Assembly: GCA_963664395.2 (NCBI GenBank)
Contig: OY761159.2
Coordinates: 4,256,001 to 4,320,000, forward strand
DNA: 64,000 nucleotides
Source of the DNA: Candidatus Binatia bacterium
Lineage (GTDB): Bacteria; Desulfobacterota; Binatia; Bin18
Direction of reading: 5' to 3'
The translations under genes were made by a program, and so were the position numbers. A model generated the notes under the pieces. The model was not told where the DNA came from. It was given only the letters and a program-made list of their open reading frames with translations, and made no database searches. Of the stretch, positions 23,558 through 49,398 are shown one piece after another (position 1 is the first letter of the stretch; each line of letters starts with the position of its first letter).

Positions 23558-24424
23558 GGCCTGTCATCAGTTAGTAAGAACCCTTGGGGTTTTCCTCCCC
23601 TGATGAGCTATACTTCTCGCGGTAGCCATAGCGAGGAGGGTTCTCAGCATGACGAAGCGGTATGCCCTACGGGATGACCAGTGGGAGCGGATTCGGGATC
23701 TCTTGCCAGGGCGAGAGGGCCATGTGGGGGGCACGGCGAAGGATAACCGCCGGTTTGTGGAAGCGGTACTGTACCGCTATCGTGCCGGCATTCCCTGGCG
23801 TGACCTCCCCCTGCGGTTTGGGGATTTCCGCGTGGTTCATACTCGGCATATGCGCTGGAGTACGAGCGGGGTGTGGGAGAAGGTGTTCAGGCACCTCGCG
23901 GCCGACGCCGACAACGAATACGCCATGATCGCTGCCACGATTATCCGGGCCCATCAACACGCTGCCGGGGCAAAAGGGGGGACCAAGAGACAGAATGCCT
24001 TGGCCGCTCCCGAGGGGGCTTGAGTACCAAACTCCATGCGACCTGTGATGCCCTGGGCAATCCGACCAGCTTCCATCTCACGCCGGGCCAAGCCTCGGAC
24101 CTCGCTGGCGCGGATGCGCTGCTCCCCGATTTGGTGAAGCACATCCAGGCCTTGCTCGCGGATACCGCGTATGATGCCCAGGAGCGAGTCCTTGACGTGT
24201 TGGAGAAGGCGGAGGTGACGATTGTTATTCCCCCCAAAACGAATCGACGCCAGCCACGCCCCTATGATACGCACCTCTATCAGGCACGCCATCTGATTGA
24301 AAACTTCTTCGCTAAACTGAAACAATATCGTGCGCTTGCCACCCGCTATGACAAACGCGCTGTCAGCTTTCTGGGAGCTATCTATCTAGCCGCCTCGGTG
24401 ATCCTCCTTAACTGATGACACCCC
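23558..24424 (+). mobile_element. IS5-family (IS427 group) insertion sequence, ~867 bp
   Basis: Terminal inverted repeats GGCCTGTCATCAGTTA / GGGGTGTCATCAGTTA; CTAG on both sides (23554-57, 24425-28); internal split transposase. Confidence 0.92.
23649..24415 (+). CDS. IS5/IS427 transposase encoded by two ORFs joined by a -1 frameshift; first DDE Asp apparently mutated
   Basis: ORFA GIPWRDLP..FG, RAHQHAAG; slippery AAAAGGGGGG 23972-81; ORFB GRSRGGLSTKLH, LADTAYD, IENFFAKLKQYR. Confidence 0.88.
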
Positions 24425-29483: not shown

Positions 29484-29513
29484 AAAGCCAAAGAAGCATA
29501 AGGGAGGAACATC

Positions 29514-30719: not shown

Positions 30720-30773
30720 TGTATCCGGCCGTCCTGAGCTTCCTGACTGTGGAACAAGACAAAGGAGAACGTC

Positions 30774-31991: not shown

Positions 31992-32014
31992 CTCCGTGGC
32001 GACGGAGGGCCTAA

Positions 32015-32440
32015 ATGGAGCTTGACGCAAACACAGAATATGGAGGGTTTTGGATTCGGGTCGGAGCGAACGTGATGGATGGGGTGGTCCTCATAATAGT
32101 ATCACTTCTGATTAACATACTGTCACAGCTTGCTTTCTCAGAGGAAGCAGCTGGAGTTGCTGACGCTGTTCCCCAGATATTGCTTTACTGGGTGTATTCA
32201 GCCGTCCTTCATTCCTCCTCTTGGCAAGCCACAATAGGAAAAAAGATGCTTGGGATGAAGGTAGTAGATTACTCTGGGGAGAGAATCTCTTTTGGTCGAG
32301 CAACTGGTCGTTATTTTGCAGGTATTCTATCCGGGTTGATTTTGGGAATAGGACTTATGATGGTCGGGTGGACGAAAAGAAAACAAGGTCTACACGACTT
32401 TATAGCAAAAACTCTAGTAGTCGAGGTCAAGAATGTTTGA
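32015..32440 (+). CDS. RDD-family membrane protein
   Basis: YGGFWIRVGA..D, QATIGK, KQGLHDFIAKT; AT-richer than flanks. Confidence 0.85.
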   Translation: MELDANTEYGGFWIRVGANVMDGVVLIIVSLLINILSQLAFSEEAAGVADAVPQILLYWVYSAVLHSSSWQATIGKKMLGMKVVDYSGERISFGRATGRYFAGILSGLILGIGLMMVGWTKRKQGLHDFIAKTLVVEVKNV

Positions 32441-32541
32441 CCAAATGCACTCTCGCCGTCTTGCATCTCCTCGCTCAACGAGGCCCGGCCTGCCCAGATT
32501 ACCTCAAGGCCTTTATATGGAAACAGAGGCGTAACCCCACC

Positions 32542-32570
32542 TTGCATCCGTAGAGGCTTGTGGCTAGGAT
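32542..32570 (+). promoter_or_regulatory. sigma70-type promoter upstream of CoA-transferase/DUF1302/DUF1329 genes
   Basis: TTGCAT-17 nt-TAGGAT. Confidence 0.5.
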
Positions 32571-32652
32571 CGCGGCAGTTCGTGTAACTGAACCTTCATT
32601 CAGCCATTCGGCCAAACTACACACTATAAGTATTGAGAGAAGGGGACTCAGT

Positions 32653-33897
32653 ATGGCAGGCGCATCACGTCAGGGTATGTTAGCTGGCTATAAGGTGCTG
32701 GACTTTACACAAATTGTTGCCGGACCGACGACGACGCGCCTGCTGGCCGAAATGGGGGCTGAGGTCATCAAAGTCGAACAGGCCCCGAAAGGAGACCCGG
32801 CCCGTCTCAATGGTATTCTGAAAAAAGGCCGCAGCGGCTATTTCGTTCAGCATAATGTATGCAAACAAAGCCTGTGCGTAAATTTGAAGACAGAGGAAGG
32901 GCGTGACATCATACGCGGGCTCATTCCGCATATGGATGTGGTAGTCGAGAACTATAGTCCGGGCGCGATCAAGCGGCTCGGTTTCGCCTATGAAGAACTC
33001 CAAAAGCTGAACCCCCGCATCATTATGTGTTCAATCTCAGCTCTTGGTCAGACCGGCCCGCTGTCCCATGTTCCCGGCTATGATTACATTGCGCAGGCGT
33101 ATTCAGGCTTCAGTGAAGTCACTGGCGAACGCGGCCGGGCACCGGCCATGCCCCAGGCTGCGATTGGCGATGTCAGCACGGGCGTGCATGCCTTCGGGGC
33201 GATTGCCTGCGCGCTATTGCACCGCGAGCGGACAGGAGAAGGCCAGTATATCGACGTGTCGCTGCTGGATGCCTATATCCATTCACACGATTTTACGATT
33301 CAGGCGCATAGCGCCTCGGGCGGCAAGTTCGTCCCGACACGGAGTGGCGCCCATCATATGGGGCTGGCCCCGTGTGGTATCTTTAAGGCAAAGGATGGGT
33401 TTGTGGTCATCGTTGGCGCTCTGGATCATCAATGGCAAGGCGTGGCGCGGACAATGGGACATCCGGAATTTGTGGAAGATCCGCGCTTCCGCACTAACCG
33501 GGATCGCGTCCATCATAAAAAAGAACTCATTGAGGCCATTGAAGCCTGGCTCGACACCATGCCGAACCGGGAAGAAGCGGTTGCCGCCCTGCACCGCGAA
33601 CGGGTGCCGGCTGCGCCTGTCCTGACCATTCCGGAAGTGGTCAATCATCCCCATTTACTTGAGCGGGAAGCCATCCGGCCGATACAGGATAAGGTGTTGG
33701 GCGATTTTGTCCTGCCCGGATTTCCGTTCCGCTTTTCGAGTCCGGCCAGAACGGATGCCCCGTTTGAAGCGCCGGATCTGGGCGAACACAATGCGTCCAT
33801 CCTGCGCGATTATCTGGACTATAGCCCTGACCAACTGGAGCGGTTAGCCCAGGACGGCATCCTTGTCAGCCGCCCAACGCCGGTAGAATACGAGTAA
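32653..33897 (+). CDS. CaiB/BaiF family III CoA-transferase
   Basis: DFTQIVAGP, VENYSPG, IGDV. Confidence 0.92.
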   Translation: MAGASRQGMLAGYKVLDFTQIVAGPTTTRLLAEMGAEVIKVEQAPKGDPARLNGILKKGRSGYFVQHNVCKQSLCVNLKTEEGRDIIRGLIPHMDVVVENYSPGAIKRLGFAYEELQKLNPRIIMCSISALGQTGPLSHVPGYDYIAQAYSGFSEVTGERGRAPAMPQAAIGDVSTGVHAFGAIACALLHRERTGEGQYIDVSLLDAYIHSHDFTIQAHSASGGKFVPTRSGAHHMGLAPCGIFKAKDGFVVIVGALDHQWQGVARTMGHPEFVEDPRFRTNRDRVHHKKELIEAIEAWLDTMPNREEAVAALHRERVPAAPVLTIPEVVNHPHLLEREAIRPIQDKVLGDFVLPGFPFRFSSPARTDAPFEAPDLGEHNASILRDYLDYSPDQLERLAQDGILVSRPTPVEYE

Positions 33898-33910: not shown

Positions 33911-35539
33911 ATGCACGGTAAACGCGGGCTCATATCCGTAGTCTGTCGCGTCCTCGGCGGGCTGTTACTCCTGGCGATCTCGGCCAATGTTTCGCCCTGT
34001 TACGGCTATTTCATGGACAAACAGGTTGATAAGGTCGTGAATACATGGTCACGCTTTGATCGCTTTCTGTCTACCTTTGATCCGGCGGGCCGGTACGTCC
34101 GACAGCCCGTAGAACGTCAGATCCCGGCCCTGACGTTTCGGGGGTTTCTCCGCCAATGGTCTGACGTCCAACTCTCAGGCGACCGCCGTGTCGGCAATCG
34201 GCGAAAAGACTTCCGTTTTTCCCAGATGCAGAATTTGCTGGAATTGGAACTCCACTACCAAGTCTCACCCAATATCGAAATAACCAATATCAATAACTTC
34301 ATATACGACGGTGTGTACAACTGGCAGGATTCTGCCGGTCTGTTTGCCTCCCGGACGAGCGAAACTTTCCGCGCCTATCATAACTTTGAACGCATCGTGC
34401 GCGAGCTGTATGTCAGCTATCGCACCCACAACCTGGATGTGGTTTTGGGCAAGCAGCAGATTGCCTGGGGTAAAATGGACGGCCAGTTCATTGATGTCAT
34501 CAACGGCATGGACAGGCGTGAGTCCGTCCAGCTTGAGTCGAGTGACTACGAGTGGCGCCGGCTGCCGGTCTGGATGGCGAATACGACCTATTTCTTTGGG
34601 GCAAACTCTCTCAACTTCCTGTGGATTCCGAACTTTGAGCAAGACCGCAATCCGGTCCCCGGCTCACCGTGGTATTCGCCCCTGGCTCCGCCCAGGGATA
34701 CGGAGACGAAAGCGCTCCTGGACGGCCGCCAAGACGCGACCGGGGATCAGTTCAGGGAGACGAAGCGGCCGTCTGCGGGCGACTTCGGCGACCATCAATA
34801 CGGCCTGCGGCTTGATGTTTCCATGGAACCGCTCACCTGGGGTCTCATTTATTATTACGCCTGGAATAAAAACCCGACGTCCTTCATTGTCGACCGCGAT
34901 ATCGATGCTGCCGGGGACCCCCATCTGACCTTTCAGCCGCGTTTTACCCGCATGCATCATCTCGGCATCACTGCCGACTATGCTTCCGCGCTCTCGAATA
35001 TGCCGCTTGTCGGCGAACTGCCCATGGTGCTGCGGGTTGAGGGTTTGTGGACCAAAGACGTTCCCTTCGCCGACTTTGACCATCAGCAGGCGGCGCGGGA
35101 CGGGAGTCTCAACTCGGGCATCATTCGGCGCGATACCCTGCGGGCCGCGATTGCGCTGGAGTTCGCCTTTCCCGGCAATACCTCTGCGATTATACAACCC
35201 TCACTCTTGTATACCTTTGACTGGCGTCGCAATCTCGGCGGGGGCTTTGGCGGAGGGATCGGAGATGAAATGAGCCTCCTGCCGGTCTTCTTTGTTGGGC
35301 GCCCGTTTCGCTTCACCCGTGACCGTTTGCGCCTGGAGTTGACCGTCGTTCCCGTTATCAGTCTGCCGCAGAAGAAATGGCAGGGCATCAAAACGAAATT
35401 TGTTTCGAGCTATCGCTTTTCCCAATTTGTTACCGGTCGCCTTATTTATACGGCGTTCAGTAGCGGTGATCGGACTGACCTGTACGGACAATATAACAAA
35501 TGGGACAATATCGGCTGGGAACTGAGTTACGAGTTCTAA
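33911..35539 (+). CDS. Outer-membrane beta-barrel protein, DUF1302-like
   Basis: Signal peptide, RELYV, LGKQQIAWGKMDG, C-terminal LSYEF; adjacent to DUF1329. Confidence 0.72.
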   Translation: MHGKRGLISVVCRVLGGLLLLAISANVSPCYGYFMDKQVDKVVNTWSRFDRFLSTFDPAGRYVRQPVERQIPALTFRGFLRQWSDVQLSGDRRVGNRRKDFRFSQMQNLLELELHYQVSPNIEITNINNFIYDGVYNWQDSAGLFASRTSETFRAYHNFERIVRELYVSYRTHNLDVVLGKQQIAWGKMDGQFIDVINGMDRRESVQLESSDYEWRRLPVWMANTTYFFGANSLNFLWIPNFEQDRNPVPGSPWYSPLAPPRDTETKALLDGRQDATGDQFRETKRPSAGDFGDHQYGLRLDVSMEPLTWGLIYYYAWNKNPTSFIVDRDIDAAGDPHLTFQPRFTRMHHLGITADYASALSNMPLVGELPMVLRVEGLWTKDVPFADFDHQQAARDGSLNSGIIRRDTLRAAIALEFAFPGNTSAIIQPSLLYTFDWRRNLGGGFGGGIGDEMSLLPVFFVGRPFRFTRDRLRLELTVVPVISLPQKKWQGIKTKFVSSYRFSQFVTGRLIYTAFSSGDRTDLYGQYNKWDNIGWELSYEF

Positions 35540-35578
35540 CCGACCTGCGTGAAAGAGCTCTCACCGGACGATCATCTT

Positions 35579-36937
35579 ATGCATAGACGCTTTTTTTTCC
35601 TGACGGTATGGGTCTTTTCTTTTCTCTCCAGCCTGGCGATAGCGATTGCTGGGGCTGCTGAGCAGAACGGCAGCCACCGGCAGACCTGGAAAACGGTAGC
35701 GGAGCTGTCCGAGGCGGAAAAGTCGCGTCTTGATTTCCGGGTCGATACCCCCCGAGATACGACGGTTCCATACCTCCCGGCCGAAGCCTATCCCTTTCAG
35801 CCGCCTTATACCGCGGAAGAGATGGGCTATCGGGCCATGGAATTCCCGCACATCGCCCGCTGGTCGCATGCTATGGCCGATGTGTTCGGCGCCATTACCG
35901 GCAACGGCTTTCTGGATGAAGGCATCACGCTGGGCTATAGCTATTATATCCCGGACGAAGATGGGGTGCCCGGTCAGCTCAGCATGACACCTGGGGAGGC
36001 CTATTTTCGGATGGTCTTCTTTTATACCTATCCGCCTGAGAATCAGGGCCTGCAGGACCTCTGGATCCTGAGACGGACAGACAAAGAGGAAACGACCAAA
36101 CTCGACAATTTTATCTATAGCCCAACATTGCGCCGCGTGCGTCGCCAGCCCCAACCCCGCCGTGATGCCCAATTCCCGAATAACGTCCAGACCTTTGACG
36201 ATGTGGTGGGGCGCGATGCCTGGGAGTTCTCCTGGCGGCTGCTTGGCACGGATGTGCTGCATGAGACCGTTCGTTTCCCAAATACCCGTCCGACAGTCAC
36301 CCTGGCCAAGCCCGACGGGAGTTTTAATGAGATCCCATCCGATCATATTAAAATGCTGGGCGACACGTATCCGCATTATACTGAAGACGGTGGAGTGGCC
36401 TGTTATGTGGTTGAGGCGACCAGACGAAAAGACTGGCTGCCCCACTATCGCATGGGCCGGCTCATCTATTGGCTCGATAAGCACAGTTTTTATCCGTTGC
36501 GAATTGAGCAGTATGACAATGACAACCAACTTCGGGTGATCGAGGTACGCAACGCCTATCTGGTCAATCCGGCACTGGAAGAACGTGGTTATGCCGGACT
36601 GTTCACCGTGTACTATGACATTGCTTTAGACCTGATGAGCTATAGCGCACATGATGCCCATTGGGTGAAGGAGTGGTCCCAAGAAGACCAGGATACGATG
36701 TTTGAGCCTGATTTTATGCGCCGCAATTGGCTCAAGTATCCGCTCAAATCCCAATCTCTGGTCTATTCTCCGGAAAAATTCTTTCTCCGCCCGCTCTTGT
36801 ATCCGGATAAATTCCCGCAGGACCGGAGCGTTGCCATCTCCGCAGAGCTGGAGCAGCGCTATCGTTTGCAGGAAGAAGCCGGACATCTAGTCTTCGACAT
36901 CTCCTCTCCGCTCATTGAGGTCAAAGCGCAACAGTAA
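35579..36937 (+). CDS. DUF1329-like (LolA-like) periplasmic protein, copy 1
   Basis: Signal peptide; YSPTLRRVRR motif; FDDVVGRD. Confidence 0.72.
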   Translation: MHRRFFFLTVWVFSFLSSLAIAIAGAAEQNGSHRQTWKTVAELSEAEKSRLDFRVDTPRDTTVPYLPAEAYPFQPPYTAEEMGYRAMEFPHIARWSHAMADVFGAITGNGFLDEGITLGYSYYIPDEDGVPGQLSMTPGEAYFRMVFFYTYPPENQGLQDLWILRRTDKEETTKLDNFIYSPTLRRVRRQPQPRRDAQFPNNVQTFDDVVGRDAWEFSWRLLGTDVLHETVRFPNTRPTVTLAKPDGSFNEIPSDHIKMLGDTYPHYTEDGGVACYVVEATRRKDWLPHYRMGRLIYWLDKHSFYPLRIEQYDNDNQLRVIEVRNAYLVNPALEERGYAGLFTVYYDIALDLMSYSAHDAHWVKEWSQEDQDTMFEPDFMRRNWLKYPLKSQSLVYSPEKFFLRPLLYPDKFPQDRSVAISAELEQRYRLQEEAGHLVFDISSPLIEVKAQQ

Positions 36938-36938
36938 G

Positions 36939-38282
36939 ATGGCTCTTCACGCGCAACAGCTCTTGTGGCTGCTTGTCTGCTGCCTGCTGTGTTCCGGCAG
37001 TCTGGGGGCCGCGACCGTGGCGGCAGACCAAGACGGTCTGACGCCGCAGAAAACCTGGACAACGGCTGCCGAGCTCACGGCCGAAGAAAAAGGAGTGCTG
37101 GATTTCCGTACGGACACGCCGCGAGATGCCAGCGTGCCCTATCTGCCGGCCGAGTCCTTCCCGTTTCAGCCGCCCTATACGGCGGAAGAAATGGCGCTGC
37201 GAGCCATGGAGTTCCCCCACTCGCCGTTCTGGGACTGCATCCTGATCGACATGGCGTTCTCGGTGACGAATTCAGGATTTATGGACCAACGCGTGACGCT
37301 TATTCCCATTCTGTATTTTCCTGAGAACGGCTTTGGAGAACATCTGTACGCGGCGCAGCCCGGCCAGGAAATCTATCGCTGGCTCTCCCAAAGCGTCTCT
37401 CCACCCGAACGGTACGGGAATCAGACCTTATGGATAGGCTATCGGACAGATAAGACCTTCCGGACGAAAATAGACATGTTCGCCTATTCTCCATCGCTGC
37501 GGCGAATCCGTCGTCAGCCGCAACCGCGGCGGGAAGACCGTTTACCAAACAGTGCCGCAACCTTCGATAATCTGATCGGACGCGATGCCTGGGAGTTCTC
37601 GTGGCGCATTCTCGGGACGGATGTTTTGCATCAGACGGTGCGTTTCCCCAAGACGCGCCAAACCGCGGTGCTGACCGACGAGAAAGGGCAGTACGTTGAA
37701 GTTGACGCCAAAGATCTCTCCCTCATGGGCAAAGAATACCCGCTCTATACCGCCGATGGTGGAGTCAAATGCTATGTGCTCGAAGCCATACCAAAATCCG
37801 ACTGGCTGCGTGACTACTATGCCCATAGGCTTATTTACTGGGTTGACCAATATGCGTTCTTTCCCTTGCGGATGGAAGAATATGACCGACAGGAGAATCT
37901 GAGTTTTGTGAACACCCGGATTGCGAGCCTTGCCAACCCGGCTCTTCAGGAACACGGCTACGCGGTTCAGTTTGACCTGTGGTGGGACGTGTCTATTGAC
38001 TTCCTGTCCGCCTCGACCCACGGTTTTGTCCCCCAGACCTGGTCAGCGGCAGACAAAAAGATATTCTTCAGCTCCGGATTCATGCGCCGCGAGTGGTTCC
38101 TTGTGCCGCCCAAGGGCCTGATGAGTCTCAACTCGCCGGACGAATTCTACCTGCGGCCCCCGCTCGAAGAGGGGAAATTCCCGGACTCGCGCTCTATCAG
38201 TTTGTCCCCTGGTCTACGGGCTCTGATTGAGGCCCAAGAGCGCGAGGGTAAGCTGGTGTTTGAGGAGGGAAGGGACGGCTAA
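36939..38282 (+). CDS. DUF1329-like periplasmic protein, copy 2
   Basis: Paralog of copy 1 (TPRD..VPYLPAE..PFQPPYTAEEM; YSPSLRRIRRQPQPRRED). Confidence 0.72.
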   Translation: MALHAQQLLWLLVCCLLCSGSLGAATVAADQDGLTPQKTWTTAAELTAEEKGVLDFRTDTPRDASVPYLPAESFPFQPPYTAEEMALRAMEFPHSPFWDCILIDMAFSVTNSGFMDQRVTLIPILYFPENGFGEHLYAAQPGQEIYRWLSQSVSPPERYGNQTLWIGYRTDKTFRTKIDMFAYSPSLRRIRRQPQPRREDRLPNSAATFDNLIGRDAWEFSWRILGTDVLHQTVRFPKTRQTAVLTDEKGQYVEVDAKDLSLMGKEYPLYTADGGVKCYVLEAIPKSDWLRDYYAHRLIYWVDQYAFFPLRMEEYDRQENLSFVNTRIASLANPALQEHGYAVQFDLWWDVSIDFLSASTHGFVPQTWSAADKKIFFSSGFMRREWFLVPPKGLMSLNSPDEFYLRPPLEEGKFPDSRSISLSPGLRALIEAQEREGKLVFEEGRDG

Positions 38283-40528: not shown

Positions 40529-41101
40529 ATGCGACGAGCCTGCCGAATCTTCCTTCTCATATCCGCAGTGGCGACGCTCTGCCTGGCTCTTCCTGTGTCA
40601 TCCTGGGCGCACCGGGATAGAGGGCCGGGAGACCTGTGCCGCCGAGAGGTCGGTGCTTCACTCTTGCATATTACGTTCTATCAGACCCAATTTGACCCGG
40701 TCACAGAATATTGTGAAGAAATTCCGCGGGTGGGCAATGCTTTCCTGGTCGTGGACGTGACTCCGGATCTATGGGAAATGCCGTTCGGCGTCCAACTCGT
40801 TGCCTCAGATGAATCTGGACAGTCGAGTACGATACTGTCGCTGCCTTCACAAGTGTATGAACGTGGCGTGGCCAACGCTGAAGTCTTTGTGAAGGCCGGC
40901 ATGAGCTATGAAGTGCGTGTCGCGCTTGGACTTGAAGGTGAACCAGAACCGCGTAAATTTTTATTTCCCTTTCAGGTTGCAGCATGGTACAAGGCTATGG
41001 TCGGGCCAGCGCTGATTGTGATCGGAGTCGTTATCGTCATTGCGATATCGGTAATCCGTTATCAGATCACCTCTCGGAGCAGAGAAGCGCTGGTGGAATA
41101 A
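40529..41101 (+). CDS. PmoD/AmoD-like periplasmic copper protein, copy 1
   Basis: SSWA|H signal cleavage; C-x9-H-ITFYQ...EYCEEIP..G pattern; C-terminal TM helix. Confidence 0.78.
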   Translation: MRRACRIFLLISAVATLCLALPVSSWAHRDRGPGDLCRREVGASLLHITFYQTQFDPVTEYCEEIPRVGNAFLVVDVTPDLWEMPFGVQLVASDESGQSSTILSLPSQVYERGVANAEVFVKAGMSYEVRVALGLEGEPEPRKFLFPFQVAAWYKAMVGPALIVIGVVIVIAISVIRYQITSRSREALVE

Positions 41102-41151
41102 AGAGAGAGAGTGTAAAGTAACGTCGTTATTACTATTGAGGAGGGATACGC

Positions 41152-42000
41152 ATGGCTCAGGCGCAAGCAGTACAAAACGTACCGAAAGGTTCTGGCGATG
41201 GTTCTCTGACAAGTGGCAGCTCAGTCAACCCGACTGATTGGTCAGTCGGGTGGCATCCTCTATTCTGGGGGTGTGGGCTTATTATGCTTGCCAACGTCTT
41301 TTTCTGGTGTTGGAACTATGCCTTTATGTTCACGGCCGGACTGAACTCAGCGAGTGCTGAATTCACGCTGTATTACCGGACGCTGTTCTGGGGCGAACTA
41401 ATTGTCTTAGGCGTGTTTAGTGGCGTGTGGTTTGGCTGGCTCATGCGGAATGGCCGGGCCGTTGAGGGACAAGAATGCTCACCCGCCGAGGAGACGCGTC
41501 GCATCGCGATTTTGTGGAGCCTGATTGGCGCGACGAGTCTGGCAATCTATATGGAAGCCAGCTTCTGGCCGAACTGGGACGGCTCGTGGCACCAGACCAT
41601 GGTGCGTGACACCGCGCTCACACCGACCCACATCCCGATGTTCTACTTTTTCTTCCCGCTCTCCGTCGTGTTAGCAGTTGGCACCTACGTCTACGGGCGA
41701 TTCCACATTCCGGCGCTGTACGGCAAGGATAAAGGCTTTCCCTGGTCGTTCTTTTTGCTGATCAGTGCCTGTGTGCTCGAATGCATGGCCGTTGCCGCCA
41801 ATGAGTGGGGCCATAGCCTGTGGATCTCCGAAGAGATTTTCTCCGTTCCGTTTCACTGGCCGTTTGTGATTTATGGCTGGCTTGCCGCCGGCATGTTTGC
41901 GGTGTGGGGTGAAACCCTGGTGCGCATGTTCGAGGTCGAGAAGGCCGAAGAGGCTGCTCATCCGGAATCTTCACTCGAGTCGCCGCTAGCTGCTGATTAA
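41152..42000 (+). CDS. xmoC: Copper membrane monooxygenase subunit C (PmoC/AmoC homolog)
   Basis: ASFWPNWDGSWHQTMVRDTALTPTH and NEWGHSLWISEEIFSVPFHW match the PmoC CuC/CuD motifs. Confidence 0.95.
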   Translation: MAQAQAVQNVPKGSGDGSLTSGSSVNPTDWSVGWHPLFWGCGLIMLANVFFWCWNYAFMFTAGLNSASAEFTLYYRTLFWGELIVLGVFSGVWFGWLMRNGRAVEGQECSPAEETRRIAILWSLIGATSLAIYMEASFWPNWDGSWHQTMVRDTALTPTHIPMFYFFFPLSVVLAVGTYVYGRFHIPALYGKDKGFPWSFFLLISACVLECMAVAANEWGHSLWISEEIFSVPFHWPFVIYGWLAAGMFAVWGETLVRMFEVEKAEEAAHPESSLESPLAAD

Positions 42001-42062
42001 TAATCGGCTCAGGTTTGGCTCGATAAACGTATCGACAATCCTCGTGCAGAGAGGAAGTGCGC

Positions 42063-42866
42063 ATGGCGGCAGACACCACAACCGTAACGGACATCACCGG
42101 TGCAGCCGAACGGCAACGTCGGCTCGAACTCAAGGAGCTGCTGAACAAGAAATACAAGTGGCTTGGTTGGAAGTGGGATCTTGTCTTCTGGACGACGGCT
42201 ATTTTCGTAGTTGCCGGTGCCGCTGACATCACCAAGCAGCTGTTTGCCGGTGACTGGGATCACTGGACGGATTGGAAAGATCAGCAGTGGTGGCCGGTGA
42301 TCACGGCTTTTGCCACGATTATCATTCCGTCGGCGCTCCAGTACATTCAGTGGGCAGCTTGGCGATTCCCGACTGGCGCGACCTACACCGCCTGCTGTCT
42401 CTTTCTGGCTGCCTGGGCCGGGCGTTATTTCCAGTGGGACTTGGCGGCCAACTATCCGCTGAATTTCGTGTGGCCGGCCTCCGTCGTCTGCGCTGGAATC
42501 CTGATGGACTGGACCTTAATGAAGACCAAGAGTTTTATCCTCACCTCGTTAATCGGTGCCCATGTCTGGGCGATCGCGGTGTGGGCCTATAATTACGTCC
42601 CCTTAGCCGCCTTTCTCCAGCCGGCCTATTTCATGGACCATGTGGTGACGGTTGCCGACGTCCAGGGCATTGCCTATATCCGCTCCCAGACGCCGGAATA
42701 CCTCCGGCTTATTGAGCGGGGTGCGTTGCGGAGTTTCCTGGGCGAGACGCAATACGTTTCCCTGGCCTTTGGGGGAACGGCGGCCTTTGTTGGCTACTGG
42801 ATCGGTCAGTTTATTGGCCGTTATCTGGCGGTATGGCCTATTCGGCGTTATCTGAAGATCGTGTGA
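42063..42866 (+). CDS. xmoA: Copper membrane monooxygenase subunit A (PmoA/AmoA homolog), divergent
   Basis: GDWDHWTDWKDQQWWP, RFPTGAT, YPLNFVWP, ADVQG..YIRSQTPEYLRLIERGALRSF. Confidence 0.95.
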   Translation: MAADTTTVTDITGAAERQRRLELKELLNKKYKWLGWKWDLVFWTTAIFVVAGAADITKQLFAGDWDHWTDWKDQQWWPVITAFATIIIPSALQYIQWAAWRFPTGATYTACCLFLAAWAGRYFQWDLAANYPLNFVWPASVVCAGILMDWTLMKTKSFILTSLIGAHVWAIAVWAYNYVPLAAFLQPAYFMDHVVTVADVQGIAYIRSQTPEYLRLIERGALRSFLGETQYVSLAFGGTAAFVGYWIGQFIGRYLAVWPIRRYLKIV

Positions 42867-42867
42867 G

Positions 42868-43227
42868 ATGAATATTATGTGCGGCATGTCTTTCAAACGT
42901 CAGCAATCTGCCCGGTATGTCAGCGTCTTCTCTTTCTTCATCGCGCTGCTTGCCGGTGTGTCTCTCTATCCTTCCCTCGCGCATGCCCACGGTATGAACG
43001 CCGCTGAAATGGCCCCGCCTATTATTACCGCGGGCATACTGGCGTTCGTCTGCTACTGGCTCGTGGTTTTGTGGCCGGCATCGAAAGGTGCCGAAACCGG
43101 CCTGCAGTGGCCGCCGGAAACGGACCGGGCTATTCGCATCAAACGCAAGCCTCGCTTACGGGTCATAGAAACGAAGCCTCAGCTCCCGGACGAACAGCCT
43201 GAGAGCAGGCAGGTGGCCGATGGCTAA
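42868..43227 (+). CDS. Small membrane protein inserted between xmoA and xmoB (start uncertain)
   Basis: Hydrophobic leader ending AHA|HGM, second TM helix, basic tail; stop overlaps xmoB start by 8 nt. Confidence 0.65.
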   Translation: MNIMCGMSFKRQQSARYVSVFSFFIALLAGVSLYPSLAHAHGMNAAEMAPPIITAGILAFVCYWLVVLWPASKGAETGLQWPPETDRAIRIKRKPRLRVIETKPQLPDEQPESRQVADG

Positions 43228-44479
43228 GCGGTTCGTGATCGGTAGTGTCGGCGTGTTAGGCGTCATCCTGGCCGTTGTCGTCGCCAAGACGCCCAGCGCC
43301 TTTGCCCATGGTGAGGCTGCCGACGAACCGTTCTTGAAAAACATGACTACGGCTTTCTTCAACGTCAGCGTTTCGCCGACCGAAATCGAGGTGGGAGAGC
43401 CGGTCAAGGTGACGGGCTCGGTCAAAATCCTCGAGACCTGGCCGCATACGCTGGAGACCCCGGAAATCGCTTCCATCATGCCGGTCGTCCCCGGGCCGGT
43501 CTTTGTACTCAGGGAGCGTTTTGTCAACGGAACGGCCGCCATCGGCTCGTTTTTCGCCCAAAAGGGGGACATTTACGAGTTTGAAATGGAGCTGGTTGGC
43601 AAAGAGCCAGGGGACTGGCATGTGCATCCCGGTATCGCCATCTATGGGACCGGTACCCTGATTGGGCCTGGCGAATGGGTTAAAGTCAAACCAAGTGCTG
43701 AACCCTTCTCATTCCCGCTCACACTGATGTCTGGTGAGACGATTGAACTCGGTACGTATGGAGGATCATTCGTCTGGTGGTGGTCGTTTGCCGGATTTGT
43801 CTTGGGGGTTATCTGGATACTGTACTGGACGACGAATAAAAGAACGGTGACCAATCTCGCAGTCACTGTCCAGCTGCCAGTGAATGACGATGCCCCCGAT
43901 ATTGGCCTCATCACGCCGCGTGACCATATGTGGATGAATGTTATCGTTGGCGTGACCCTGGTTATGCTGGTTGTCGGTTGGACGTATGCCACATCAAATG
44001 CGCCAGTTCGCTGGCCGCAGCAAACGGACTGGTTTACTCCGGAATTCATTTCTTCTGGTGAGAAAATTGTTGAGGCCCGGGCCAGCGGGGCGACGTATGA
44101 CGAAGCGAGTGAAACGCTTGAGATGAAGGTCCAAGTGACGAATGTTGTTGAGAGCGACATCGAACTCAAGCAACTGACTATAGCGATGGCGACCTTCGTG
44201 AACGGACCGGAAGCCGAACAGGCGAAAGCCGGTCCGAGTGATTTTGTTGGTCGGCTCGAAGTCCAGCCGGACGGGCCGATTGCTCCGGGCGAAAATAAAG
44301 AGCTGACCCTGACTATTTCAAGTAGTATTTTCAGCGAAGAGCGTCTCATCCCGACGCAAGCACCGCAGCAGTTTATTGGCGCAGTCTTACGCTTTGAGAA
44401 TGGGAACGACGGTCATGAGTTAGTGACGGTCCGTTCAAACGTCGTCCCCACTCAGTTCCGTTCTACCTATCTGCCATAA
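43220..44479 (+). CDS. xmoB: Copper membrane monooxygenase subunit B (PmoB/AmoB homolog)
   Basis: AFA|HGE mature N-terminal His, PGPVF, PGDWHVH (CuB), two central TM helices, second cupredoxin domain PIAPGENK. Confidence 0.95.
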   Translation: MAKRFVIGSVGVLGVILAVVVAKTPSAFAHGEAADEPFLKNMTTAFFNVSVSPTEIEVGEPVKVTGSVKILETWPHTLETPEIASIMPVVPGPVFVLRERFVNGTAAIGSFFAQKGDIYEFEMELVGKEPGDWHVHPGIAIYGTGTLIGPGEWVKVKPSAEPFSFPLTLMSGETIELGTYGGSFVWWWSFAGFVLGVIWILYWTTNKRTVTNLAVTVQLPVNDDAPDIGLITPRDHMWMNVIVGVTLVMLVVGWTYATSNAPVRWPQQTDWFTPEFISSGEKIVEARASGATYDEASETLEMKVQVTNVVESDIELKQLTIAMATFVNGPEAEQAKAGPSDFVGRLEVQPDGPIAPGENKELTLTISSSIFSEERLIPTQAPQQFIGAVLRFENGNDGHELVTVRSNVVPTQFRSTYLP

Positions 44480-44520
44480 GCTCCAGAGCGGGGACAGACC
44501 TCCCCGCGGGTGGAGCCTCG

Positions 44521-45093
44521 TTGGACAGCGTTGTGAAACTCTTCTCCCTTGTTGCCATGCTCCTCGTCCCAACGGGAGCATGGGGACATGGGGGTGTCGC
44601 CATGGATATGGACCCCTGCATAGAGCGGGCCGGCGCCTATCTGATCCATTTTTCTGCCTACCAGCCGCAAGAGTACGCAACCGAAGAATTCTGTCGGAGC
44701 GTTCCTCTGACCGGGAGTACGATTCTCGTTTTTGATCTGATTGATCCCGAATTGCGCAAGAAATCAGCTGCGGTGCGCATTATTAAGGAAACCAATACTG
44801 CTGAACCTCGACTGTTGCTCGATATCCCGGCACGGGTGTATCCCAGCGGCGTGGTGAATGCTGAAGTCCATTTTGACACACCTGGCCAGTATACGGCCCT
44901 GATGACGCTTGACGGGGTTGATGGGTCTGTGCGGTTTCCCATTCGAGTCGCTTCACTCTCAAATACCATGCTGGTCCTGATCGCGGGCCTGATCATCGGC
45001 TGCGGCGCTGGCTATTATGTCGTCGGTGGCAAACTCGGTTGGCCACCGTTTTCGGTGAAAAAGGTTCCGTCACTCACATTGGTCAAGGGATAG
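44521..45093 (+). CDS. PmoD/AmoD-like periplasmic copper protein, copy 2
   Basis: AWG|HGGVAM; C-x9-H-FSAYQP...EEFC..P..G...VFDLIDPELR; C-terminal TM. Confidence 0.82.
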   Translation: MDSVVKLFSLVAMLLVPTGAWGHGGVAMDMDPCIERAGAYLIHFSAYQPQEYATEEFCRSVPLTGSTILVFDLIDPELRKKSAAVRIIKETNTAEPRLLLDIPARVYPSGVVNAEVHFDTPGQYTALMTLDGVDGSVRFPIRVASLSNTMLVLIAGLIIGCGAGYYVVGGKLGWPPFSVKKVPSLTLVKG

Positions 45094-45151
45094 GTGCGAA
45101 ACCACCTATCCCCCCTTTTCCTAACGCTCTGTTCACAGTACATATTGAACG

Positions 45152-46846
45152 ATGTGGCTGCGTGGTCTTCTCTTTTTCTGCCTTCTTCTGAGTGTACTCG
45201 CTATCGGTACGCTTTTTCTGCTTCCTCGTGCCTGGCTCCCCCGCCCGATACAAGACTTTGCGTATCAATATATCGGCGAAGAGTCCTACCAAAAGCCGCC
45301 TCCCAGTCGCGAAATAAGCCCTGTCAGTGTGGAGCCATTTTGTCTGGACAGACACCCAGACTGGCGGAAACCTCAGACTATTGAGGGCGTTGCCGTGGAA
45401 GCATCACCGGTTTGTGATCCAGATAATCCAGCCGACATTGCGGCCTTTGTCAAAGGGACGAATAATATTGCTCTGCACACGCTCATGGAGACGCGGCTCA
45501 CGCCCAATACGGTGGTGAAGGAGAACGACCGAGACGGGGATGGCGACCCGGATGAGATTCACATCCGACTTGAAGTCATAGAATTGAACGGACACTCACC
45601 GGATGACCCCGCCCCATTCCCCGCCTATTTCATTGCGCCTGGCGTACAGCCCGGGCTGTGGGTTTTTGCTCCAAAATCACGCGGCATGGCGACGGAGAAT
45701 TTTGAAAGTGAACAGGCGCACCCGACCTTGAGAGCCCCGTCTCCGGTGATTCGTATAGAGCAGGGTGATACGCTCCGGGTGACCTTGGAGAATACACACT
45801 ATCTGCCGCATACCATTCACTTCCATGGGGTTGACCATCCCTTTGTTGACGCCGCCGGCGAGGGAAACGACGGTGTTCCCATTGTGAGTGAAATGCCAGT
45901 CACACCAGGGGAGAGTCGCACCTATGAGATGACCCCGCGTCAAACGGGCACGATGTTTTACCACTGCCACGTCCAACCTCATGTCCATATTCTGATGGGA
46001 CTCCAGGGCATGTTTGTTGTTGAAGAGAACCGGCCGAATAACTGGCTCCAAACGCTCAATATTGGAGCCGGTCGGGTGCGCGCTGTCTCTGCGGCAGTCA
46101 GAGAGTCGTATGATCGGGAATTCGACCTGCACTACCAAGACATCGACCCGGCGTTGAATAACATTATTCAGACCGCGACGGATCCCAGATTAATCGCCGA
46201 AGCGACGAATCGGGGTTATGACATTACGGATCAAGAACCTGACTATTTCTTACTAAACGGACGGTCATTTCCCTATACGACCCGCGAGTCGCTTGTTGTT
46301 GTTGCCCCAAATGAACGGGTCAAACTGCGTGTCCTCAACGGCGGAGCGGAAGGAATCTCTCTGCATACGCATGGGCATAAAGTCAAAATCACGCATTATG
46401 ACGGCGTCGAACATAATCCGGCTGCTCAAATCACCCGCGATGTGGTATGGCTGAGCCCCGCCCAACGGGTAGATCTTCTCCTCAATACAACTGATGACGG
46501 ACTGCATAATTATGGGCAAGGCATCTGGCTGCTCCACGACCATAAGGAAAAGGCCATCACAACTGATGGGATCAACCCTGGTGGCAATATCAGTGCCATT
46601 GTCTATCAGGATTACTTGGACGCATCCGGTCAGCCGAAAACGCAGGGGATGGATTGGGCGCCGTTTTTCACCAAGGAGTATTATCAAAAAAAGCTTCCCA
46701 TCTGGGCTGGCCTGGAGGACTTTAACCTTTTTGGAGAGGCGGGTACTCGTTCCCTGCCCTTGAGTTCCGCACTCATACTCGGGATAGGTATCGGCTTCCT
46801 CATCGGCGCGGCTTGTGCCTTTGGGCGATTTACCCGACGCCGATGA
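45152..46846 (+). CDS. Membrane-anchored two-domain multicopper oxidase (T1 site in domain 1)
   Basis: HTIHFHG; YHCHVQPHVHILMG; LHTHGH; LHDH (no Cys); TM helices at both termini. Confidence 0.85.
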   Translation: MWLRGLLFFCLLLSVLAIGTLFLLPRAWLPRPIQDFAYQYIGEESYQKPPPSREISPVSVEPFCLDRHPDWRKPQTIEGVAVEASPVCDPDNPADIAAFVKGTNNIALHTLMETRLTPNTVVKENDRDGDGDPDEIHIRLEVIELNGHSPDDPAPFPAYFIAPGVQPGLWVFAPKSRGMATENFESEQAHPTLRAPSPVIRIEQGDTLRVTLENTHYLPHTIHFHGVDHPFVDAAGEGNDGVPIVSEMPVTPGESRTYEMTPRQTGTMFYHCHVQPHVHILMGLQGMFVVEENRPNNWLQTLNIGAGRVRAVSAAVRESYDREFDLHYQDIDPALNNIIQTATDPRLIAEATNRGYDITDQEPDYFLLNGRSFPYTTRESLVVVAPNERVKLRVLNGGAEGISLHTHGHKVKITHYDGVEHNPAAQITRDVVWLSPAQRVDLLLNTTDDGLHNYGQGIWLLHDHKEKAITTDGINPGGNISAIVYQDYLDASGQPKTQGMDWAPFFTKEYYQKKLPIWAGLEDFNLFGEAGTRSLPLSSALILGIGIGFLIGAACAFGRFTRRR

Positions 46847-47580
46847 GGGAATACCAAATGGATTTCTTTCTGAGGAAGAATGATTATAGGGGGACGGTGG
46901 CGTCCGGGAGAAGGCAGCTCCATAGGGCCGTCTCTACACTGATTGTCTATACCGTGTCCACATTGCTTTCCGGCGCGATCGGCTCGGCTCAAGAGCATGC
47001 TCATCACCATAAACATCATGGGATGCAGCTCGATACTGCGGGTATGGTGATGAATGAAAATACGGACCAGCTCCCCCGGGGCTGCCCCCGCATTTCAGGT
47101 GAGCACGAGCTTACCGTTCGTGCCGGAAAAGAATTTGCCCACCCAGGGACGATGTTCGCGTATGATCGGAACGAATGGGATTTTAAGCCATGTACGAAAC
47201 TCACGGTGACGCTCATTAATACGGACAGTGTTCGTCACCAGTGGATGCTGCACGGCCTTCCGCGCTATATCTACCCCCAGGGCATGTTTACGCTTGAAGT
47301 CGCGGGCAAAGGGCAGCGGACAGGTACCTTTATCCTTCCGCCCGGAGACAAGACCTATCTGGTGCACTGTGATGTTCCTCAGCATATGGAAAAGGGAATG
47401 AAGGCCCAGCTCAAGGTCGGGGCTGGAAATGGGGATCTGCCCAGCATTCCCGGGGTGACCGGACCGCGTCTGCGGGACCCGTATTCAATGGCCTGGAACT
47501 GGTGGACGCATGGTGCTGTCTTTGTATTCGGTATCGTCAGTATGATCTTCGTGGGAAGAAGGTTGCGCCTTTTTCCCTAG
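46843..47580 (+). CDS. Membrane-anchored cupredoxin with His-rich N-terminus (start uncertain)
   Basis: QEHAHHHKHHG; HQW...HCDVPQHMEKGM type-1 Cu ligands; C-terminal TM; ATGA overlap with the MCO stop. Confidence 0.82.
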   Translation: MREYQMDFFLRKNDYRGTVASGRRQLHRAVSTLIVYTVSTLLSGAIGSAQEHAHHHKHHGMQLDTAGMVMNENTDQLPRGCPRISGEHELTVRAGKEFAHPGTMFAYDRNEWDFKPCTKLTVTLINTDSVRHQWMLHGLPRYIYPQGMFTLEVAGKGQRTGTFILPPGDKTYLVHCDVPQHMEKGMKAQLKVGAGNGDLPSIPGVTGPRLRDPYSMAWNWWTHGAVFVFGIVSMIFVGRRLRLFP

Positions 47581-47610
47581 GAGTTCGGGGCGTCATATGC
47601 CCTCTTTCTC

Positions 47611-47639
47611 TTGACCTCCAGTCTAAAAATAAGTAGGGT
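47611..47639 (+). promoter_or_regulatory. sigma70-type promoter upstream of the PQQ dehydrogenase
   Basis: TTGACC-17 nt-TAGGGT. Confidence 0.5.
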
Positions 47640-47685
47640 TCGACCACATTTTTCGATTGTCAATTACTCCGAGGAGGCATTATCC

Positions 47686-49398
47686 ATGCGAGGTTACTGG
47701 TTGTCGATATTTTTACAGGTGGCAGTCTCTCTCATGCTTCTCTCTCCAACCGCACTTTACGCTGACGCGCCTGCCAAGAACGCTGACGCGCTTCAGCCGG
47801 TTACGCACGAGCGTTTGGTCAAAGGAACGGCCAACTACGCTGACTGGCTGATGTACGGTGGGAATTATGAAGGCTGGCGATTTAGTCCCCTAACGGATAT
47901 TGACCGCCAGAATGTCAAAAAACTCCAGGCCGCCTGGATTTTTCAAACCGGGGTGCCAGCCCAAATGCAAGCCTCACCCGTGGTTGCCGATGGCGTGATG
48001 TATCTTACCGCGGCCTACAACAAGCTCTTTGCTTTAGACGCCGTAACTGGCAAACCGCTCTGGAAATATGACCATGATCTGCCGGACGATCTGCGGATTT
48101 GCTGCGGACCGGGCAACCGGGGAGCTGCGCTGGCTGGGGATAAGGTCATTATGGCCACGCTGGATGCGCGTATTGTCGCACTCAACAGGAAAACCGGTGC
48201 AGTCGTGTGGAATACCCAAGCCGACGACTATGCCGACGGCTTCAGCTTTACCCTGTCACCACTGATTGTTCGAGACAACGTCATTGTTGGTATTGCGGGC
48301 GGTGAATACGGTATTCGCGGCTATATTGATGCCTATGATCTTAAGACCGGAAAACGCAAATGGCGTCGTTATACGGTGCCTGACGAAGGCGAGCCTGGTG
48401 CCGAGACCTGGGCTGGTGATTCGTATAAACAAGGCGGCGGACCGGCTTGGGTGACTGGCTCGTATGATGCGGATCTTGACCTGGTTTATTGGGCAACGGG
48501 TAATCCGGCCCCGGACTGGAACGGGGATGGACGTGAGGGTGATAATCTCTACACCAACTCGGTGTTAGCTCTTGAGCCTGATAGCGGTGAGATCAAATGG
48601 TACTTCCAATTCACCCCGCACGACGTCTGGGACTATGATGGCAACACGGGGATATTTCTGCTCGACGTGATGCGCAGTGGCCAGTCTGTCAAAGCCTTAG
48701 CCCAGCCCAATCGGAACGGATATATGTATGTCCTTAATCGTGGGGATGGAAAGTTCCTGCACGGCTCCCAATACGTTGAGCAGCTCAACTGGGCGAAAGG
48801 GCTGGACGAAAATGGCCGGCCGCTTATTGACCCCAAGTATGTTCCCATGGAGGGAGGCAATCCTGAATTAATCTGTCCCGGGAATGCGGGGGGACAAAAC
48901 GGATCGTATGCTGCGGCCTACAGCCCGCTTGCCAATCTCATCTTTGTCCCGACGATTGAGAGTTGCGGAAAAATGGAAAAGGCCAAATCTATTTTCATCA
49001 AAGGCATCCCATTCTGGGGCGGGGGGCCTGGACAAACGCAGGGCGACCTCGGCACAGCATACGGTCACGTCACGGCCATAGACCCCACCAGGGGTGAAGT
49101 GAAGTGGCGCTATAAGGACGAGTGGCCGATGGTTGGTGGGGCACTCGCTACAGCCGGGGGACTCGTATTTACCGGCAACCAAAAGGGATTCGCTCTTGCC
49201 TTGGATGACGCGACGGGTGCGGTCTTGTGGAGGTTCCAAACTGGCTCGGCTGTTCGGGGACAACCGATTACATACAAAGTTGGTGGTAAACAATATGTTG
49301 CTGTTCCCAGTGGCGCCGGGGGGTTGGTCGTGGATATCGTCGGTAAATATCCCCAAACAACACCGGGTAGCTCTGTTGTGGTATTTGCGCTCCCGTGA
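47686..49398 (+). CDS. PQQ-dependent alcohol dehydrogenase, predicted lanthanide-dependent
   Basis: Signal peptide; RICCG vicinal Cys; GGEYG; GNPAP; TPHDVWDYDG carries the extra Ln-binding Asp. Confidence 0.92.
   Translation: MRGYWLSIFLQVAVSLMLLSPTALYADAPAKNADALQPVTHERLVKGTANYADWLMYGGNYEGWRFSPLTDIDRQNVKKLQAAWIFQTGVPAQMQASPVVADGVMYLTAAYNKLFALDAVTGKPLWKYDHDLPDDLRICCGPGNRGAALAGDKVIMATLDARIVALNRKTGAVVWNTQADDYADGFSFTLSPLIVRDNVIVGIAGGEYGIRGYIDAYDLKTGKRKWRRYTVPDEGEPGAETWAGDSYKQGGGPAWVTGSYDADLDLVYWATGNPAPDWNGDGREGDNLYTNSVLALEPDSGEIKWYFQFTPHDVWDYDGNTGIFLLDVMRSGQSVKALAQPNRNGYMYVLNRGDGKFLHGSQYVEQLNWAKGLDENGRPLIDPKYVPMEGGNPELICPGNAGGQNGSYAAAYSPLANLIFVPTIESCGKMEKAKSIFIKGIPFWGGGPGQTQGDLGTAYGHVTAIDPTRGEVKWRYKDEWPMVGGALATAGGLVFTGNQKGFALALDDATGAVLWRFQTGSAVRGQPITYKVGGKQYVAVPSGAGGLVVDIVGKYPQTTPGSSVVVFALP

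Follow-up and report, generated by a model that had tools for sequence, protein, structure and literature searches.

Genes of the Copper Monooxygenase Operon

This report concerns a copper membrane monooxygenase (CuMMO) encoded on the chromosome of an uncultured Candidatus Binatia bacterium, whose lineage is known from metagenomes. The analyzed stretch of 64,000 nucleotides (C1:4256001-4320000), called the window below, contains a cluster of nine genes on the plus strand at positions 40529-49398, and the core of this cluster encodes the three CuMMO subunits together in the order C, A, x, B:

41152..42000, plus strand: xmoC, 282 amino acids (aa); Pfam AmoC (PF04896), E 7.9e-42
42057..42866, plus strand: xmoA, 269 aa; Pfam AMO (PF02461), E 1.8e-52
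42868..43227, plus strand: orfX, 119 aa; the 'x' of the CAxB layout
43220..44479, plus strand: xmoB, 419 aa; Pfam Monooxygenase_B (PF04744), E 9.2e-70

The scores of the three subunits with the AmoC, AMO, and Monooxygenase_B models (143.7, 179.1, and 236.2 bits) are far above the gathering cut-offs of 26.7, 27.5, and 22.7. At the same time, none of them reaches the equivalog cut-offs for canonical ammonia monooxygenase (AMO) and particulate methane monooxygenase (pMMO) (NF041557, NF041640, and NF041641): XmoC scores 156.1 bits against 319, XmoA 190.1 against 290 (AmoA_BACT), and XmoB 262.7 against 336 (AmoB_BACT), and the models TIGR03078-80 likewise score under cut-off. The proteins were further compared by phmmer and HMMER with all Protein Data Bank (PDB) chains, with the chains of Methylococcus capsulatus Bath pMMO (1yew and 3rgb) as references. 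Only pMMO and AMO subunits matched significantly, save a marginal designer repeat protein in the XmoA search (E 9e-4). The best PDB E-values were 4.4e-38 for XmoC, against PmoC, and 1.3e-53 for XmoB; the Bath chains gave 2e-42 for PmoA, 1.9e-53 for PmoB, and 9e-30 for PmoC. By these matches the window enzyme is a divergent CuMMO.

Copper Ligands and the Proposed Tricopper Site

Residues 47-149 of XmoA align with residues 28-130 of Bath PmoA (1yew_B), and because this alignment is ungapped, the register is unambiguous. The segment D57-I-T59-K60-Q61 replaces Bath H38-I-H40-A-M42, so that H38, H40, and M42 correspond to D57, T59, and Q61. Further downstream F50 is replaced by H69, E100 by A119, and N103 by G122; D47 (D66), D49 (D68), and R104 (R123) are kept. 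In the alignment of XmoB with Bath PmoB (3rgb_A), which has an offset of +3 after one gap, the CuB histidine brace is intact (H33, H137, and H139 are H30, H134, and H136), and both bis-His (CuA) positions are changed (H48 to A45, H72 to K69), so this second site is absent from the window protein.

XmoC was aligned with Methylocystis PmoC, in which FTEQDGTWH..TPSH stands against WPNWDGSWH..TPTH of the window and NEWGH..PLH against NEWGH..PFH. Bath numbers for XmoC were deduced from the matched ranges of 1yew_C (query 48-255, chain 59-265) and the indels of the Methylocystis alignment, not from a residue-level alignment with Bath. On this numbering E154 is replaced by N141. The CuC ligands are kept (D143, H147, and H160 for D156, H160, and H173), and so are those of CuD (N217, H221, and H235 for N227, H231, and H245).

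The tricopper site ('site D' or CuE), a proposal of Chan's group, we take to comprise PmoA H38, M42, D47, D49, and E100 together with PmoC E154. Four of these six residues (H38, M42, E100, and E154) are replaced in the window, and only D47 and D49, along with the neighboring R104, remain. Three of the four replacements (D, Q, and N) are still possible oxygen or nitrogen donors.

The window enzyme and Bath pMMO (1yew, 3rgb, and 7ev9) therefore belong to the same fold family with identical CuB, CuC, and CuD ligands. Unlike Bath pMMO, the window replaces PmoA H38, H40, M42, F50, E100, and N103, PmoC E154, and PmoB H48 and H72, and it has the extra orfX and two flanking pmoD-type genes. The original prediction had claimed the retention of all CuB, CuC, and CuD ligands, the changes H38D, H40T, M42Q, F50H, and E100A in PmoA and E154N in PmoC, and the absence of H48 and H72 from XmoB. 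As far as sequence alignment goes, each of these residue calls is confirmed, and formal alignment disclosed no register error.

Distribution of the Substitutions in the Clade

A protein search with XmoA found 204 relatives, of which the best 120 listed are 59%-93% identical; those of 230 aa or more, 116 in number, were aligned with the window protein (117 sequences in all). Independently, a scan of species-representative genomes yielded 80 loci, of which 74 (C), 79 (A), and 72 (B) gave high-scoring segment pairs spanning 80% or more of the query without a stop. XmoA is 71%-97% identical to proteins of Candidatus Binatia and Binataceae metagenome-assembled genomes (MAGs), some of them filed under other labels, and 59%-69% identical to those of nine MAGs of Actinomycetota, Dormibacterota, Nocardioides, and Vicinamibacterales. 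More distant are the characterized hydrocarbon monooxygenase (HMO) of Mycolicibacterium chubuense NBB4 (42%), Pxm (31%), and a canonical AmoA representative (29%).

The composition of the relevant XmoA positions (Bath numbering) in the 117 sequences is as follows:

Position 38: D 94, N 20, F 2, gap 1
Position 40: T 116, gap 1
Position 42: L 97, Q 14, others 6
Position 47: D 117
Position 49: D 117
Position 50: F 105, M 11, H 1 (the window)
Position 100: S 56, A 36, T 18, V 5, Q 2

In addition, XmoA position 60 is K or R in 90 of the 117 sequences. The genomic loci give the same picture: D57 of XmoA is present in 78 of 79 loci and T59, D66, and D68 in all 79; in XmoC, all 74 loci share N141, D143, H147, H160, N217, E218, H221, and H235, with W142 following N141 in 65 of 65 Binatia-type loci; and H30, H134, and H136 of XmoB occur in 72 of 72. 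The former bis-His positions in these 72 loci hold A, G, or S (position 45) and K, R, or Q (position 69). Judged from these alignments, all substitutions bar F50H are a fixed trait of the whole clade.

The clade itself is in print. Murphy et al. (2021, mBio; PMC8262859) describe Binatota CuMMOs of the 'Actinobacteria/SAR324' type that cluster with bmoA of Nocardioides CF8 and have the CAxB layout, sometimes with pmoD, and report a second Binatota clade of the TUSC type. To judge by its identities and its CAxB layout, the window locus would belong to the former, bmoA-like clade. Their operons come from the same phylum and share the C-A-x-B layout, the hypothetical gene between A and B, pmoD, and PmoB H33/H137/H139, and nothing essential differs in the window operon. 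It is a further member of a published clade, and the residue pattern is not special to the window. The residue check in the available part of PMC8262859 covers PmoB H33/H137/H139 only, and the PmoA patch, PmoC E154, and CuD are not tabulated there. An open-access literature search, with subscription papers and supplements outside its scope, turned up no published table of the PmoA patch in this clade.

The actinobacterial branch carries the same substitutions. A Nocardioides sp. MAG with an XmoA 60% identical to that of the window has D-I-T-K-L, D47, D49, N at XmoC position 154, and all CuB, CuC, and CuD ligands; the butane monooxygenase (pBMO) of Nocardioides sp. CF8 is placed in the same clade by PMC8262859. 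Unlike the window, the actinobacterial loci have no orfX, PmoD, multicopper oxidase, or pyrroloquinoline quinone (PQQ) enzyme as neighbors.

Tricopper Residues across the Family

A wider phmmer search over 1.84 billion cluster representatives gave 172 matches; 26 of the 150 listed are long enough for analysis and the rest are fragments. With P0173 left out because it starts too late, 25 representatives could be aligned over the N-terminal region, and they keep the Bath residues as follows:

H38: 15 of 25
H40: 9 of 25
M42: 9 of 25
D47: 23 of 25
D49: 15 of 25
F50: 18 of 25 (His in none)
E100: 8 of 25
R104: 20 of 25

The full set of H38, M42, D47, D49, and E100 is present in just two representatives, P0193 (374 bits, above the AmoA_BACT cut-off) and P0228, a chimeric prediction that includes a fragment of canonical appearance. 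Named enzymes agree with this. Methylomagnum Pxm keeps H38, H40, D47, D49, and E154 and has M42A and E100T. The HMO of NBB4 (hmoCAB, plasmid pMYCCH.01), which has the CAB order and the same CuB, CuC, and CuD ligands as the window, likewise has other residues in place of H40 (N), D49 (S), and E100 (Q); it keeps H38, M42, D47, and PmoC E154, whereas the window clade is changed at H38, M42, and E154. Among these representatives, D at position 38 outside the clade was seen only in P0210 and P0219, both apparently aberrant or chimeric predictions.

Thus partial loss of the tricopper residues is the norm outside canonical pMMO and AMO, and what is specific to the clade of the window is the combination of H38D with PmoC E154N. 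In terms of the residue table, the tricopper residues are a peculiarity of canonical pMMO and AMO and no feature of the family, and the ligands of CuB, CuC, and CuD show no variation within the clade of the window. The original prediction had named in advance the common occurrence of the same substitutions in characterized clades as evidence against it. The substitutions are no peculiarity of this genome, since they are fixed across the clade and partial loss is usual in noncanonical CuMMOs. We found no explicit statement in the open-access literature, with subscription papers outside the scope of the search, that these residues lack conservation across CuMMO clades, nor is there one in the available part of PMC7170481; where PMC12576850 speaks of a lack of conservation, it means other sites.

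Two of the representatives have unusual architectures: P0161 (514 aa) combines AmoC and AmoA matches in one chain, and P0181 (985 aa) has its AmoA domain at residues 676-904.

Selection and RNA Libraries

The genes are intact by several measures. Ratios of nonsynonymous to synonymous substitution rates (dN/dS) were calculated by the Nei-Gojobori method against ten relatives, with dS above about 1.5 regarded as unreliable:

xmoC: dN/dS 0.030-0.080; dS unsaturated in 8 of 10 comparisons
xmoA: dN/dS 0.021-0.077; dS unsaturated in 10 of 10
xmoB: dN/dS 0.047-0.120; dS unsaturated in 10 of 10
orfX: dN/dS 0.13-0.27; dS unsaturated in 8 of 10
pmoD-type genes: dN/dS 0.10-0.28 (pmoD1 0.11-0.19); dS unsaturated in 9 of 10 (pmoD1) and 8 of 10 (pmoD2)

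Counting only columns with 97% conservation or more, there is no private change in XmoC of the window, two in XmoA (D37G and F69H), and none in XmoB; 30 control relatives have 0-3. The stretch is present in sequencing runs of eight studies, six of these runs being RNA libraries. In the RNA run X3 a single contig of 3578 bases spans positions 41001-44578 with 4 differences, and the RNA runs X17 and X19, the latter labeled 'sponge metagenome', also contain the operon genes. Transcription of Binatota pmoA in sponges has been reported (PMC9999580). The ends of the RNA contigs were considered as possible transcript boundaries and rejected, as only X3 stops at 41001/44578 and X17 does not.

These data bear on the idea that the operon is a relic in decay whose substitutions reflect drift. 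Scores under the curated equivalog cut-offs and the two private changes, the radical F50H and D37G, could be read in that way. On the other hand, the reading frames are intact with dN/dS of 0.02-0.12, the replaced residues are near-invariant across 74-79 loci, the operon is found in RNA-library contigs, and XmoC and XmoB have no private change at conserved columns. Decay is hardly credible on this evidence: xmoC, xmoA, and xmoB are intact and under strong purifying selection. The view of the original prediction that four tricopper ligands are replaced in intact genes is upheld.

The Private Change F50H

One substitution sets the window apart from its clade:

42261..42263, plus strand: xmoA codon 69 (Bath F50), CAC (His) where relatives have TTC (Phe)

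The codon is TTC in all 16 close loci checked, so that CAC is a two-base change. At the protein level every one of the 79 loci encodes F here, and the 116 database proteins all carry either F or M. The CAC codon recurs unchanged in X3, X19, and X4, three runs from as many studies; X17 contains a related strain with TTC. F50H is therefore a real, lineage-specific variant at a position that is otherwise F or M in the clade. F50 is presumably part of the aromatic pocket in Chan's model, and an open-access literature search on Phe50 and Trp51 of pMMO returned nothing relevant. The second private change, D37G, falls on XmoA codon 37 (42165-42167), which encodes Asp in 77 of 79 relatives, and lies in the N-terminal region ahead of the first helix.

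A Re-made Polar Patch

Five of the six proposed ligand positions in the window still hold oxygen or nitrogen donors (D, Q, D, D, and N). Across the clade the patch is made up of D57, T59, K/R60, Q/L61, D66, D68, A/S/T119, and R123 of XmoA and N141 of XmoC. Because the replacement residues are themselves conserved, and hence under constraint, the patch has some role; it has been replaced by another constrained polar set and not erased, and is no clean knock-out of metal binding. We consider it probably a buried network, polar or structural, where subunits A and C meet, and not a cluster of three coppers. A network of this kind would fit the water modeling of 7ev9 in PMC12576850, a study which names His38, Met42, Glu100, Asn103, and Arg104 at the proposed trinuclear site. 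Quantum refinement there gives no support for that site, and the 'CuE' densities are best modeled as waters hydrogen-bonded to His38, Asn103, Arg104, and Glu100.

The original prediction went further and took the locus for a natural tricopper knock-out, and thus for informative new evidence of a PmoC-centered active site, with a reshaped substrate pocket besides. H38D, M42Q, E100A, and PmoC E154N, together with N103G, do occur in intact genes whose CuC and CuD ligands are invariant, and such evidence, if new, would be relevant to the old dispute about the site of methane oxidation in pMMO. However, the same state is fixed clade-wide and partial loss is common in the family (the full set in 2 of 25); besides the retained D47 and D49, the residues D57, Q61, and N141 are potential ligands. 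Moreover, the activity of the Binatia enzyme is inferred, so that nothing has been put to a test by these genes. The dispute has largely moved to CuC and CuD of PmoC on direct structural, spectroscopic, and mutagenesis evidence. According to a 2026 review of AMO (PMC13058606), trinuclear clusters are a minority interpretation and the PmoC-centered site is the consensus; the bis-His site is called nonconserved, CuB is absent in verrucomicrobial pMMOs, and mutation of the CuB site of the NBB4 HMO did not fully abolish activity, in support of an active site in subunit C. The trinuclear site of 7ev9 has for its part lost support in PMC12576850. We therefore regard the knock-out as a possible reading that the evidence does not favor. 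Its PmoC-centered component is compatible with the invariant ligands and agrees with the consensus, and it is not new; the noteworthy 'natural test' does not stand. Because the pattern is a trait of a published clade and the PmoC site is already the consensus, this interpretation adds little, and that of the original prediction as a whole is partly supported.

A more elaborate function can be imagined for the patch, in which D57, T59, K/R60, D66, D68, and XmoC N141-W142 form a re-engineered site, either a proton or water relay or a hard-metal site that would feed CuC/CuD. With OrfX as a clade-specific, His-first membrane peptide, the result would be a four-subunit CuMMO with a non-methane substrate, further tuned by F50H, which would place a new His beside D66/D68. 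We consider this proposal speculative and distinctly improbable, and prefer the structural network.

Gene Context and Probable Substrate

The remaining five genes of the cluster, and a terminator-like site, are located as follows:

40529..41101, plus strand: pmoD-type gene 1, 190 aa; signal peptide, His predicted as first mature residue, membrane helix at the C-terminus
44521..45093, plus strand: pmoD-type gene 2, 190 aa; paralogue of pmoD-type gene 1
45087..45112, plus strand: terminator-like hairpin at the end of pmoD2, 10 pairs, 6 of them G-C; from a consensus scan only, weak evidence
45152..46846, plus strand: multicopper oxidase, 564 aa; Pfam Cu-oxidase_3, Cu-oxidase_2, and Cu-oxidase
46813..47580, plus strand: cupredoxin-like protein, 255 aa; weak Pfam Cu-oxidase_2 match, 1.9e-4
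47611..49398, plus strand: PQQ-dependent alcohol dehydrogenase, 595 aa; ethanol-dehydrogenase-like, WDYDG motif

Gene order is partly conserved. The pmoD-type gene 1 is kept upstream of xmoC across the Binatia loci; gene 2 stands downstream of xmoB in the closer loci, where the multicopper oxidase and cupredoxin-like genes are also syntenic, and the PQQ alcohol dehydrogenase gene is syntenic in the closest ones. The dehydrogenase scores 593.7 bits with NCBIfam PQQ_enz_alc_DH (cut-off 480), and among PDB chains it matches 6zcv_A best ('Quinoprotein ethanol dehydrogenase'; 413 bits, versus about 333 for XoxF entries). The second Asp of its WDYDG motif we take to mark lanthanide-dependent enzymes.

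The interpretation that we prefer, at a probability of about 0.8, is that the window encodes an intact CuMMO operon core (xmoC-xmoA-orfX-xmoB) of the published hydrocarbon-type clade, with XmoC-centered chemistry, a structural patch, and a C2-C4-type substrate. O2 activation and substrate hydroxylation would occur at the XmoC copper site or sites, as in other CuMMOs. The substrate is more likely to be a small (C2-C4) hydrocarbon or a related compound than methane or ammonia, because of the ethanol-dehydrogenase-like PQQ neighbor, an Fe-type alcohol dehydrogenase encoded upstream of the cluster, and the studied member of the clade: bmoA of CF8 oxidizes C2-C4 alkanes, not methane (PMC8262859). 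The product alcohol could then pass to the adjacent PQQ enzyme, and copper handling or electron transfer may be the task of both PmoD-type proteins together with the multicopper oxidase and the cupredoxin-like protein. Gene context and clade membership in the literature thus point to a putative short-chain alkane monooxygenase.

Several points weigh against this interpretation. Activity and substrate of the Binatia CuMMO are a matter of inference. The link to the butane enzyme rests on the tree of PMC8262859 and on the Nocardioides MAG at 60% identity, not on the sequence of CF8 itself. Sponge studies (PMC9999580) interpret the Binatota gene as a methane monooxygenase, and the genome carries further PQQ dehydrogenase paralogues. 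The new patch retains three carboxylates as well as amides, which leaves room for some metal site. Finally, the RNA-library contigs may derive from carried-over DNA, as no silent stretch served as a control.

The methane interpretation deserves separate attention, since it would make the organism a methanotroph. Besides the Binatota pmoA transcripts that were published as methane oxidation (PMC9999580), it can appeal to PMC8262859, which leaves methane open and reports a methanol dehydrogenase homologue in five of nine such genomes, and to the presence of all copper-site ligands shared with pMMO. Yet all subunits score far under the pMMO/AMO equivalog cut-offs, XmoA is only about 29%-31% identical to the canonical AmoA representative and Pxm, and the nearest physiologically studied relative does not oxidize methane (PMC8262859). 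In addition, the linked PQQ enzyme is ethanol-dehydrogenase-like and not XoxF-like, and a second, different CuMMO in the genome could be the methane enzyme. On balance, methane oxidation by the window enzyme seems unlikely.

An acetone-oxidizing CuMMO homologue exists as well (PMC8630023), and by analogy with Methylacidiphilum PMO3 the window enzyme might attack acetone or other C3 oxygenates. Against this, the linked genes both here and in the closest relatives encode a multicopper oxidase and a PQQ alcohol dehydrogenase along with a cupredoxin-like protein, and no GMC-type dehydrogenase was seen among 38 scanned neighboring open reading frames (ORFs) of the 63 in the window with at least 100 aa. 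Such a substrate is very unlikely, and a short-chain hydrocarbon is retained as the better candidate.

OrfX, PmoD-Type Proteins, and the Second CuMMO

OrfX and the pair of PmoD paralogues have been explored less than the rest of the locus. In OrfX a signal peptide ending in AHA is followed by HG..E..PP, then by a single membrane helix (..CYW.V.LWP) and finally by a basic tail; P50, P51, T54, Y63, W64, L68, W69, and P70 are invariant. No match was found in Pfam (only chance-level hits at E up to 10), among PDB profiles, or in the ESM Atlas. The Binatia loci retain the gene at its place between xmoA and xmoB, and the nine actinobacterial-type loci have only 27-159 bases there and no ORF comparable to orfX. 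OrfX may be a fourth subunit; a complex prediction of XmoC, XmoA, and XmoB with OrfX as partner gave a score of 0.00, which weighs neither for nor against binding, the fold of OrfX itself being uncertain. By eye from the alignments, the predicted mature N-terminus is His in XmoB, in both PmoD-type proteins, and in OrfX.

Both flanking 190-aa ORFs belong to the PmoD family: a profile built from 23 homologues (alignment A1) matches 6cpd_A, the PmoD chain of Methylocystis sp. Rockwell, with an E-value of 6.6e-19 across 117 positions of the profile, and the alignment has hydrophobic N- and C-terminal segments. This relationship is seen only by the profile against 6cpd, as no Pfam or NCBIfam model matched. 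The two are 24% identical in A1, where the invariant residues include H28, D35, C37, H47, E60, and C62. C37 of the first ORF aligns with a Cys of the 6cpd chain; the Met residues beside that Cys of 6cpd have no counterpart in this alignment, and the window has two paralogues.

The second CuMMO operon of this chromosome (C1:2386400-2389366, minus strand) has the C-A-B order and no orfX. Its product is about 32%-34% identical to the window CuMMO, scores 223.5 bits against the AmoA_BACT cut-off of 290, and may be of the TUSC type in the scheme of Murphy et al. It keeps H38, M42, D47, D49, F50, and PmoC E154 and has H40S and E100A. Since H38, M42, and E154 are kept there, one cell holds both states of the patch, and two deeply divergent CuMMOs that differ at these positions in one genome are convenient for side-by-side expression. 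The same genome encodes at least five further PQQ dehydrogenase paralogues, including the one at C1:2976362-2977963; one of the paralogues is 71% identical to the CuMMO-adjacent enzyme.

Other Features of the Window

The promoter scan returned two sites, both on the minus strand, a count no higher than expected by chance; the consensus scan for terminator-like sites found 14, versus 5.2 expected in shuffled sequences. A DDE transposase fragment (180 aa, Pfam DDE_Tnp_1) at 23873-24415 on the plus strand is the sole trace of a mobile element among the 38 Pfam-scanned ORFs. Four paralogous genes for family III CoA-transferases stand in a row at 28266-33897 on the plus strand, interrupted by an RDD-family gene, and between them and the CuMMO cluster, at 33911-38282, lie genes for a DUF1302 protein and two DUF1329/LolA-like outer-membrane proteins.

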